41,756 nucleotides of DNA from an uncultured delta proteobacterium (GCA_963743525.1 CAVUQH010000001.1:1-41756); one strand, 5' to 3'; shown: positions 22,811 through 36,123, counted from the first letter of the stretch. A program made the numbers and translations. Notes: generated from the sequence alone by a model not told the origin.

Positions 22811-24019
22811 TTACTCTCGTACTCCGGGTTTCCTCCGTAGGGCGGTGATGACCTTCTCGAGGCTGTACCCCGGCGCGGCCGGATACGGGCCGCACGAGAA
22901 GCTCGTCGCCTGCAGTCTGTTGCGCAGACTCGCGCAAGCCTCCTTTGTCATGAGCGTGTCATCGAGGTCGATGAAGAAGCCCGGGCGGGGCCCGCCGAGC
23001 GCAGTCGCGTCCTCGACGAGCGTGTAGTTCAGATCGAGCTCTTCGAGGTGTGGCAAATCCGCAACGGGGCGCACATCCTTCACCAGAGTGAACGCTGCCT
23101 GAAGGCGTTCGAGCGTCTCGACGCGGGCCAGCGGCGCCAGGTCCGTAACGTACGAACCGGAGATGTCGAGGGAGGTCAGGTGTTTGGCGGCCGCGAGCGG
23201 ACCGAGATCGCTCACGTAGGTGTCCGATACCTCGAGCTTCGCAAGGTTCGGGATGGACCCGACGACAGCGAGATCCCGCAGCGATGTATGACTGAGGTGT
23301 AGCTTCTTCAACGCGCCGATGCGCGTGAGTGGTTCGAGGTCGGCGAGCTCCGCCTTGCGCAGAGAGACCTCCTCCAGAGCCCTGAGCGACGCCAGCGGTT
23401 CGAGGCTGCGGATCGCGGTGCCGTTGGCCACGAGTGTTTCCACCGGCTGGCCTGCGATCGCGTCGAGACGCGCGATCTTGGTGCCACTGATCCCGAGCGA
23501 GCGGAGTCGCAACCCGGCGAGCGGCGCAAGATCGGCCACCGGAGTGTCGTTGAGGTCCAGGAATTGAAGCGTCGCCATCTTCGCGAGGGGCGAGAGATCG
23601 CCCACGCGGGTGCCGCTGATGTCCAGCGATCTGAGCTCCAACCCCCGCAACGCGCCGAGGTCGGCGACCGGCGTCTCGGACAGATCCAGCCTGGTTATCT
23701 TCGTCAGGGATGACAGCGCCGACAAATCAGCGATCCCGGACTTGGACAGGTCGAGATCCATCGTGCTCCAGCACTCGGCCAGCCCGCGGAGCGGTGTCGC
23801 GTCGTGCACTCCAGCATCGTGGCACGACACCTCTCGCCTCCCCATGCCGTCCGCCTGGATCGAGCGGCACGTCAGCTGCTGCCCGCAGAACTCGATCACC
23901 CGCGGCGCGGCGCGGGGGGCTGCGTCGTCCGGAGGCCTGGTCGCCGGTGGTGGCTCACGCGTCCTCTGGCAGCCCAGGAGCGCGACCATGGCAACGACCG
24001 CGACGCGGGCGCTGCTCAT
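22811..24019 (-). CDS. Leucine-rich repeat (internalin-like) lipoprotein, 402 aa
   Basis: Signal peptide with lipobox (VALLG-C). About 11-12 repeats of 21-22 aa, pattern L.xLxLsxTxVxDLxPL. ATGA overlap with the upstream gene. Confidence 0.88.
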   Translation of the reverse strand: MSSARVAVVAMVALLGCQRTREPPPATRPPDDAAPRAAPRVIEFCGQQLTCRSIQADGMGRREVSCHDAGVHDATPLRGLAECWSTMDLDLSKSGIADLSALSSLTKITRLDLSETPVADLGALRGLELRSLDISGTRVGDLSPLAKMATLQFLDLNDTPVADLAPLAGLRLRSLGISGTKIARLDAIAGQPVETLVANGTAIRSLEPLASLRALEEVSLRKAELADLEPLTRIGALKKLHLSHTSLRDLAVVGSIPNLAKLEVSDTYVSDLGPLAAAKHLTSLDISGSYVTDLAPLARVETLERLQAAFTLVKDVRPVADLPHLEELDLNYTLVEDATALGGPRPGFFIDLDDTLMTKEACASLRNRLQATSFSCGPYPAAPGYSLEKVITALRRKPGVRE

Positions 24020-34212: not shown

Positions 34213-36123
34213 TCAGCCCCTCCCCCGTCCCGAGCCGTTGCCCGGGAGCCACGGCGCCAGCTCCTGTTCCCATCCGGCGAACTCACTGCCACTGCCGAGG
34301 CGGCCCGAGCGCTGCATTTCGCGCCACGTCGCGACGATCAGGTGCCGCATGGCGAGCTCGGTCCCGTCCGCGCTGGCGAGGACCAGCGCGGCGACCACCG
34401 CGTTGCGAATCGTGCCTCCCGAGAACGGGAAGCGCGCGGCGAGCAGTGCGATATCGAGGTGGTCGTGCGACGGCGGGACCATGCGGCGCCACAGCTCTTC
34501 GCGCTCGGCCAGTCCCGGCACCGGGAACTCGACGATCACCTGGATGCGGCGCGCGAACGCCTCGTCGAAGTTTCCGCGCATGTTGGTCGCCAGGATGACG
34601 ATTCCCGGATGCTGTTCGAGGCGCTGCAACAGATACCCGGTCTCGACGTTGGCAAATCGATCGTGGGCGTCTCGCACCTCGGTGCGCCGGGCGAACAGCG
34701 CATCGGCCTCGTCGAAGAACAGAATCACGTTGGCGGTCTCCGCCTCGTCGAACAGACGGCCTAGGTGCTTCTCGGTCTCGCCGATGTACTTGTCCACCAC
34801 CTGCGACAGATCCACGGCGTGAATCGGCAGGCCCAGCTCGCGGGCAACCGCGCCGGCCGCGGTGGTCTTGCCCGTACCGCTCGGACCGCTGAACAGGCAG
34901 GTCAAGCCGGACGACATCCGGAGATGCGGACCGTGGCGGGAGTCGCGAATCGCCATGCGATGTTGACTCCACGCGATGGCCAGCTCGAGCTCGCTCCGCG
35001 TGGCCGAGGGCAGCACTAGATCCAACAGCGTGAGCTCGCTGCTCAGCGGCCGCGCGGCGCGAAGCGCGAAGGCAGGCGTCACTGCCTGACAAGCAGCGGT
35101 CACATCGGCCTCGGTCAGGGGCGCATCGCGGACCCGGGCGCTCGTGGTCGCCAGCTCCGCGGCGGCCTCGATCATGCCCGGGCCGAACGCAAAGGCGCCG
35201 GCGATGAACGGCAGATCGACCTCCGCGGCCGCGTCGCCCAGCCGGCGCCGCCACAGCTCGATGCGCGTCGCGCCGTCGAAGCGCTCCGCGTGGATCTGGA
35301 AGGCTCGCGCAGCCAGCGGGGGACTGACCTCGGCAGGGGCGAGCTCGAAGATCGCGGACGGGCAATCGAGTAGCAGCTCGTCGATCGGCACGGCGGCGTG
35401 CGAAATCAGCGGAATTGCATCGTACCAGCGCGCCTCGCGGACGATATCGGAAACGCCGGCGGTCCGGGACACACGCACCAGGTCGCGGCCGGCGTGCGTC
35501 GCGACCGCCCGCGCAATCGCGGTTCGGCCGCTATCCGGAGGCCCGCTGACGATCACGACGCCGGTCCTGCGGTCGAGGTGCGCTGCCGCCTCGGCGATCC
35601 GTTCGCGCATCGCGTCGCGCGCCACCAGATCCGCGTCCGGCATGGGCGCCAGACGCTCGTCATGCTCCTCGATGCCGAGCATGCGCTGCCAGACGATGTC
35701 CGGCACATGCAGCCGTCGTCCGGCGAACGGTCGATCCCCCACCACGGAAAGCAGGCCGTTGGTGCGCAGCGGAGCGCCTCGCCCGAGCCGCGTCATCACC
35801 AGCTCGCGCGACAGGCCCGCGGCCTCGCCGAGCAGCTCCAGCACCAGGCCGACCGAGGGCATCGCTTCGCCATCGGTGCGCTCGAACCGGCGGACATACT
35901 TGCGATCGAGGTTCGGCGAGGCACCGAGCAGAAGCAAGTCTCGATCGAACGACGTCAGGCAGTGACGGCCGGCGAGAAGATTGAGCCCGGGCAGCGCCGC
36001 ATCGCCTTCGCGCAGCCGCGCGCGTCCACCGTCGTCGAGCAGTGCATCGACGTACGCGAGATCGATCGCGAGGGCCGGTTCGCGCAGTGCGAGTAGCCGC
36101 CGCAAGGCATCCTCGTGCCTCAT
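34213..36123 (-). CDS. Afp15/Pvc15-like AAA+ ATPase (copy 2), ~636 aa
   Basis: Probable start ATG 36123 (alternatives upstream). L..FDRDLLLL...P.LD..Y N-domain, GPPDSGRT, Walker A GPSGTGKT, VDLSQVVDKYIGETEKHL, Walker B ILFFDEADALF, DRFAN.ET.YLLQRLE. Confidence 0.92.
   Translation of the reverse strand: MRHEDALRRLLALREPALAIDLAYVDALLDDGGRARLREGDAALPGLNLLAGRHCLTSFDRDLLLLGASPNLDRKYVRRFERTDGEAMPSVGLVLELLGEAAGLSRELVMTRLGRGAPLRTNGLLSVVGDRPFAGRRLHVPDIVWQRMLGIEEHDERLAPMPDADLVARDAMRERIAEAAAHLDRRTGVVIVSGPPDSGRTAIARAVATHAGRDLVRVSRTAGVSDIVREARWYDAIPLISHAAVPIDELLLDCPSAIFELAPAEVSPPLAARAFQIHAERFDGATRIELWRRRLGDAAAEVDLPFIAGAFAFGPGMIEAAAELATTSARVRDAPLTEADVTAACQAVTPAFALRAARPLSSELTLLDLVLPSATRSELELAIAWSQHRMAIRDSRHGPHLRMSSGLTCLFSGPSGTGKTTAAGAVARELGLPIHAVDLSQVVDKYIGETEKHLGRLFDEAETANVILFFDEADALFARRTEVRDAHDRFANVETGYLLQRLEQHPGIVILATNMRGNFDEAFARRIQVIVEFPVPGLAEREELWRRMVPPSHDHLDIALLAARFPFSGGTIRNAVVAALVLASADGTELAMRHLIVATWREMQRSGRLGSGSEFAGWEQELAPWLPGNGSGRGRG

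Follow-up and report, generated by a model that had tools for sequence, protein, structure and literature searches.

The 41,756-nucleotide stretch of DNA considered here (the window), from an uncultured delta proteobacterium, makes up all of contig C1 in a genome of 8.55 Mb that is 97% complete and is coded G000; other genomes, contigs and loci are likewise cited by code (e.g. G075:C262, G075:C30 and L056). Seven minus-strand genes, running from 36123 to 22811, adjoin a complete operon for an extracellular contractile injection system (eCIS), and the new and testable part of the locus is a module inside this run, composed of a JAB/JAMM-like domain in a large DUF4157 toxin and the pseudokinase encoded next to it. 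In order, the genes encode an Afp15/Pvc15-like (CDC48-related) AAA+ ATPase, here ATPase 2 (34213-36123; 636 amino acids (aa)), assigned from Pfam AAA and WHD matches, motifs and its place in an ATPase tree; a pseudokinase with a Hanks-type fold (33448-34173; 241 aa, start uncertain); the DUF4157 polymorphic toxin (27785-33445; 1886 aa); immunity-like genes 1 (27096-27788; 230 aa) and 2 (26419-27099; 226 aa); a protein with immunoglobulin (Ig) and helical/hydrophobic regions (24016-26262; 748 aa); and a leucine-rich repeat (LRR) protein (22811-24019; 402 aa). The intergenic gaps are 39, 2, -4, -4, 156 and -4 bp, so that four of the six junctions overlap or almost touch, and all seven genes have a coding-type base composition at third codon positions. 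This confirmed the limits of the run and its description, in an earlier note on this DNA, as co-oriented and largely translationally coupled.

The 1886-aa product (P0018 in our protein library) begins with a DUF4157/eCIS_core domain (33122-33319, minus strand) that matches PF13699 with an E value of 4.8e-8 and 33.5 bits against a cut-off of 22 and carries the HExxH motif as HEVTH. With immunity-like genes adjacent, its earlier designation as an eCIS-linked DUF4157 toxin held. A helical region with one hydrophobic segment follows, and then a penultimate JAB/JAMM-like domain (28895-29593, minus strand) that the earlier note had overlooked, with putative metal-site residues Glu-1340, His-1375, His-1377, Ser-1415 and Asp-1418. 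This domain has 299 representatives, and the five positions of its E...HxH...S-x2-D motif are retained in 149, 150, 150, 145 and 150 of 150 library proteins, in a search that itself enriches for these residues. One library entry, P0004, is a 3822-aa DUF4157 protein containing three JAB-like domains. Five sequences of the domain had no match in Pfam, HHalign comparison with Tox-JAB-2/DUF4329, RadC and Prok-JAB gave probabilities below 4% (with small profiles of 7, 24 and 25 sequences), the ESM Atlas returned nothing usable and a scan of genome contigs with the domain found none. The C-terminal domain (27788-28411, minus strand) is a predicted nuclease of the PD-(D/E)xK (REase-like) type, with the E, D and (D/E)xK pattern invariant among eight hand-picked C termini of 13-53% identity; it matched neither Pfam nor, by sequence, the Protein Data Bank.

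The kinase-like protein is predicted to adopt the protein kinase fold (AF2 pLDDT of 93; Foldseek match to PknB with an E value of 1.1e-13 and a TM-score of 0.72). The catalytic HRD aspartate and the DFG motif are absent, YGIHP and GMAPR standing in their place (family consensus RPE and APR), and judged from these features the protein is a pseudokinase, as the earlier note had said. A homologue search with this protein returned three matches, one being itself, and a metagenome scan returned two weak loci. The start of its gene lies in an ambiguous stretch (34173-34215) in which the stop codon of ATPase 2 is in frame with the pseudokinase open reading frame, whereas the overlapping ATG lies in another frame; the first conserved strand of the family precedes the first in-frame GTG. 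One public contig (depth 2) differs from the window by a single-base indel in this stretch, which raises the possibility of an assembly error in the window.

The association between the JAB-like domain and the pseudokinase was assessed in 55 JAB-toxin entries at 54 loci of other genomes, comprising all 52 published order-level matches outside G000 and three from a phylum sample (an unpublished genome, G084, was counted only in some tallies, and no claim depends on it). A pseudokinase was found beside 50 of the 55 toxins, 49 being scored as co-directional and one being partial at a contig end; two of the other five entries end at a contig edge and three are truly without. It lies downstream of the toxin in 48 of the 49 scored loci. 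Where the JAB-like domain is terminal (tail shorter than 40 aa), the pseudokinase domain begins 30-147 bp past the toxin in 13 of 13 cases; where a further domain follows, it begins 371-4581 bp past the toxin in all 35 downstream cases, and the interval is occupied by a separate gene or by a variable immunity-like N-terminal domain fused to the pseudokinase. Both JAB toxins of the G000 genome have a pseudokinase, and out of sample all three matches in other families of the phylum carry one downstream. The second G000 toxin locus (C5:3647-8278) lies beside a transposase pair; DUF4157 and the toxin are split between two overlapping reading frames, and an immunity-like gene and then the pseudokinase come next. 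The stand-alone gene after this toxin is 42% identical to a domain fused to the pseudokinase in G003, where the toxin ends in CdiA_C.

Pairwise identities of the JAB-like domain and the pseudokinase were correlated (rho = 0.56 for 48 pairs and 0.53 for the 32 pairs with DUF4157), and the two shared a nearest neighbour in 26 of 48 cases; the corresponding value for DUF4157 and the pseudokinase was 0.02, DUF4157 segments being short. As a control, a pseudokinase-family gene was present within 5 kb of none, and within 10 kb of one, of 22 other DUF4157 matches in the G000 genome. The pseudokinase thus tracks the JAB-like domain and not the ATPase or DUF4157. The correlation is inflated by relatedness and physical closeness. 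In the reverse direction, a JAB-like domain lay within 10 kb of 34 of 50 pseudokinase matches (E ≤ 1e-30), but the proportion fell to 14 of 30 once the training set was excluded. The 14 pseudokinase loci inspected were mostly orphans with no toxin gene nearby, one followed a DUF4157 toxin lacking the JAB-like domain, and some were near contig ends. In G000, an orphan family member (C14:590967-591743) and a DUF4157-Ig gene whose product is related to the 748-aa protein are ∼7.5 kb apart. Tandem copies also occur, three as fused genes at L056 (G142) and two at L104 (G120); in the accessible text of PMC3482391, tandem and orphan copies are a habit of immunity genes.

The twin immunity genes of the earlier note are indeed paralogous (E value of 1.5e-7, 30% identity). 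Gene 1 has a 45% identical orthologue behind the same toxin C terminus in G075:C30 and is likely, on this evidence, to be cognate to the C-terminal domain; a counterpart of gene 2 is absent after the G075:C30 toxin. Look-alikes of gene 1 among Imm52 and DUF5953 proteins came from ESM Atlas clusters at 0.92 with a low recognition score, in which 14 and 21% of members carry these families, and Pfam gave no match to PF15579 or PF19378.

Our favored interpretation, which we regard as probable though far from certain, is that the 1886-aa protein is an eCIS polymorphic toxin with two warheads and that the pseudokinase is the immunity protein for the JAB-like one. The role proposed for the pseudokinase follows from its linkage and co-variation with the JAB-like domain rather than with DUF4157, and the arrangement of two warheads with two immunities is suggested by likeness to the double-blade WHIX effectors (PMC12135965, in the part accessible). 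By likeness to Pvc15, for which cargo loading is described in the accessible text of PMC11495950, an Afp15-type ATPase (ATPase 2, ATPase 1 or both) would load the toxin into the tube via its N terminus. The toxin would then be injected into a bacterial cell, a bacterial target being implied by the cytoplasmic immunity-like genes. Both the JAB-like metallohydrolase, for which nucleic acid or a nucleotide is the better guess at a substrate, and the PD-(D/E)xK nuclease would act in the target cytoplasm. In the producer, the pseudokinase would bind and neutralize the JAB-like warhead, and the two small paralogues would neutralize the nuclease.

In an unlikely, but the best surviving, alternative, the JAB-like domain would be a peptidase for autoprocessing or maturation and would free the C-terminal toxin, with the pseudokinase serving as a chaperone or safety catch that keeps it inactive in the producer. 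The domain is penultimate in 36 of the 49 scored entries, where it precedes unrelated C-terminal domains (CdiA_C, WHH, DUF2380, 2H and zeta-like); characterized JAMMs are peptidases, and polymorphic toxins often place processing peptidases ahead of the toxin tip, according to the portions of PMC3239186 and PMC3482391 available. Against this, the 13 loci with nothing after the JAB-like domain still have the pseudokinase, 43 of 150 library proteins stop within 60 aa of the domain (some probably being fragments), and P0004 has three copies. Furthermore, the accessible text of PMC3482391 argues that the ubiquitin-like (UBL)-tail tunnel is absent from toxin JABs.

The earlier note had proposed instead a self-contained cassette whose cargo would be loaded by a dedicated ATPase (ATPase 2), with the pseudokinase as the adaptor. 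ATPase 2 has an intact D2 Walker A motif (GPSGTGKT) and a degenerate D1. In G075:C262, a structural operon 40-77% identical to that of the window and in identical order is accompanied by a homologue of the gene at 20059, a single ATPase, a DUF4157 toxin, a small gene, a pseudokinase, pvc16, a homologue of the gene at 19125 and the sheath gene, which bears out the earlier idea of a modular payload slot. Relative to this arrangement, the block formed by the 20059 gene and ATPase 1 and the pvc16 gene are flipped in the window and stand 17 kb apart with the seven-gene run in between; because they flank it in this way, the run appears to occupy the payload slot of an operon that has been rearranged. 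A tree of 15 ATPases (two further toxin-locus ATPases were left out) grouped ATPase 2 with the G075:C30 ATPase and the sole ATPase of the G075:C262 operon (support of 99/98) and placed ATPase 1 as sister to them. It is therefore with ATPase 2, rather than ATPase 1, that the homologous operon's one ATPase groups as sister, and the earlier description of ATPase 2 as dedicated is not supported. The remaining toxin-adjacent ATPases were scattered among other clades.

Several observations nonetheless favor a link between loader and cargo. The core order of ATPase, kinase-like gene, DUF4157 toxin and immunity gene recurs in one other genome (G075:C30); an Afp15-like ATPase adjoins the toxin module in nine of the 54 loci, in eight of which no structural genes were present in the DNA retrieved; pvc16 is encoded somewhere in nine of 10 tested genomes having ATPase-adjacent effector modules; and cargo is selected by Pvc15 in the accessible part of PMC11495950. 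On the other hand, 45 of the 54 loci lack an adjacent ATPase in the DNA retrieved (some of it truncated), most of them having the pseudokinase, which does not co-vary with DUF4157. The toxin-adjacent ATPases belong to several clades, and no locus retrieved contained all seven genes together, the run being a mosaic. The beside-toxin position of the ATPase was thus borne out, whereas the conserved cassette and the adaptor role were not, and we consider loading by a dedicated ATPase-pseudokinase pair improbable. Stand-alone Afp15-like ATPases also lie beside or near open reading frames with acidic low-complexity N termini and no DUF4157 at three places in G000 (C3:829056-832267, C2:85765-89123 and C24:338187-341122), which are possible satellite loader-cargo modules.

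That the pseudokinase is a co-delivered partner, or a repair or ligand-binding protein that reverses or detects what the JAB-like domain produces, rather than a stoichiometric inhibitor, is suggested by family-specific residues in its former active-site loops (RPE, APR and the invariant Pro-118 and Arg-135), consistent with a selected ligand pocket, but this too has only a slim chance of being correct, as fusion to variable immunity-like domains and the orphan and tandem copies better fit a cytoplasmic producer protein than cargo, and no catalytic residues were identified in the pseudokinase.

The remainder of the run is best explained separately. The 748-aa protein, called a second effector in the earlier note, had no close relative in a homologue search and no PF13699 match, and the 156-bp gap upstream is too short to hold DUF4157. 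It aligns with DUF4157-Ig proteins in G038, G161 and G031 (two copies), over nearly its full length in the first two, and lacks the DUF4157 and first Ig domain of these homologues. A pairwise BLAST comparison with the G000 gene at C14:580564 was not significant, but a profile links the two (E value of 1e-17). The earlier label is thus supported by kinship with DUF4157 effectors, and the protein, which has no DUF4157 domain of its own, is best read as an N-truncated relative. The LRR protein matches Pfam LRR_4 and has a lipobox-like LLGC, read from the sequence, as befits a candidate lipoprotein. In G161:C1, an LRR gene with a similar N terminus overlaps the stop codon of the homologue; no LRR gene was present at the other three of the four homologue loci. 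The 748-aa and LRR genes are likely a separately acquired, truncated second effector module, in which the LRR protein is possibly the immunity protein. Exactly where the 748-aa gene starts is uncertain, because the 156-bp gap (26262-26419) reads differently in three of four public runs, with a one-base indel and a substitution relative to the window. A 50-residue fragment at C18:28011-28160 of G000 is 68% identical to residues 557-607 of the 748-aa protein.

The structural operon (57-19787, minus strand) encodes two sheaths, two tubes, LysM, spike, gp25, baseplate J and fibre-like proteins. A convergent block on the plus strand (20059-22755), containing an unclassified 200-aa gene and ATPase 1, separates it from the seven-gene run. 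On the other side, a Pvc16/Afp16 terminator gene (36320-36994, plus strand; PF14065) that the earlier note had overlooked is oriented divergently from ATPase 2, at a distance of 17 kb from the sheath gene, and its product is 50% identical to that of the pvc16 gene heading the G075:C262 operon. The locus consequently carries the sheath, tube, spike, gp25, baseplate J, Pvc16 and CDC48-like ATPase that mark an eCIS of the Photorhabdus virulence cassette type (PVC-SS). Weak matches to NCBIfam CIS13 and CIS12, below cut-off, were seen at 1490-3985, 4948-6216 and 6240-8903, with two CIS13-like genes in one operon. A 330-aa unclassified gene (36997-37989) abuts pvc16 and has a 90% identical copy, split across two frames, at C20:18374-19364 of G000.

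Contigs from other public runs (four runs from three studies, one run possibly being the source sample) span the junctions at ∼19.8, 22.8, 36.2 and 37.0 kb, which makes an assembly artefact an unlikely explanation of the layout. The window showed no terminal repeats of the kind that would mark an invertible or mobile unit, and its only long inverted repeat is that of the two ATPase genes. Promoter and terminator counts in the region were at chance level; a σ70-like site (10 of 12 positions) at 19852-19881 faces the structural operon. Matches in PADLOC were generic kinase and AAA ones, and a role in anti-phage defence was rejected. A second eCIS lies on C19 of G000, and the genome as a whole has seven Afp15-like ATPases, two pvc16 genes and 25 DUF4157 matches, so that a second ATPase or a DUF4157 toxin alone is not unusual. 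The host appears to be a myxobacterium, because the source names on toxin relatives are Kofleriaceae, Polyangia and Myxococcales (three of 10 proteins queried and one cluster member).

Published work already covers DUF4157 toxins of PVC-type systems, including some with immunity genes near eCIS loci (PMC3482391, PMC8213781 and PMC11297309). Such toxins share with the present one the N-terminal DUF4157 HExxH, long linker and variable C-terminal toxin domain, as well as many dispersed copies, the CDC48-like ATPase and some immunity genes. The accessible text of these papers makes no mention of a conserved penultimate JAB-like domain with a variable tip and a pseudokinase partner. Tox-JAB-1 and Tox-JAB-2/DUF4329, proposed nucleases in the part of PMC3482391 available, share the E, H[ST]H, S, D motif and likewise occur in toxins, but they are listed with RHS carriers, with export by type II, VI or VII secretion systems and with Imm65 or Imm-NTF2-2. 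In contrast, the present domain is ∼230 aa long with insertions, resembles neither Pfam families nor the DUF4329 profile and is carried by DUF4157 proteins; it could be listed in Additional File 1 of PMC3482391. The WHIX effectors, such as Awe1, likewise combine two toxic domains in one effector, with two cognate immunity proteins (PMC12135965, in part), but they are type VI effectors that target peptidoglycan, with toxic domains flanking WHIX, whereas here the system is of the eCIS type and both domains, as predicted, are C-terminal in tandem. Pvc15 is similarly a tandem AAA protein with an active D2 ATPase encoded among eCIS genes in the accessible text of PMC11495950; here the locus encodes two paralogues and the genome seven, several of which are next to cargo-like genes but distant from structural ones. 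The literature searched, mostly without subscription papers and supplements, yielded no report of a pseudokinase partnered with a JAB-like toxin domain. Among the matches listed for bacterial pseudokinases with immunity proteins and toxins, none concerned the JAB pairing by title or start of abstract, and searches on Haliangium DUF4157 and on contractile injection in Myxococcota found nothing related. What is new at the locus is therefore not the seven-gene cassette proposed earlier as an undescribed system but the JAB-pseudokinase module within it.

More tentatively, and with somewhat less than even confidence, we suggest that several hundred myxobacterial eCIS toxins combine this new JAB-fold warhead in tandem with an exchangeable second one, that its dedicated antitoxin is a former Ser/Thr kinase, now a pseudokinase and often fused to the second immunity domain, and that the modules travel with their own Afp15 loaders for a syringe encoded elsewhere. 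The JAB-pseudokinase pair is small (∼230 and 250 aa) and open to direct test, and the satellite ATPase-cargo modules make the cargo specificity of the ATPases testable. If correct, the interpretation would define a new family of toxin domains and, in a bacterial pseudokinase with a specific function, a new class of immunity protein. It would also provide two-warhead effectors for eCIS and would bear on the observation, in the accessible text of PMC8213781, that immunity genes are scarce next to eCIS toxins that act on bacteria.
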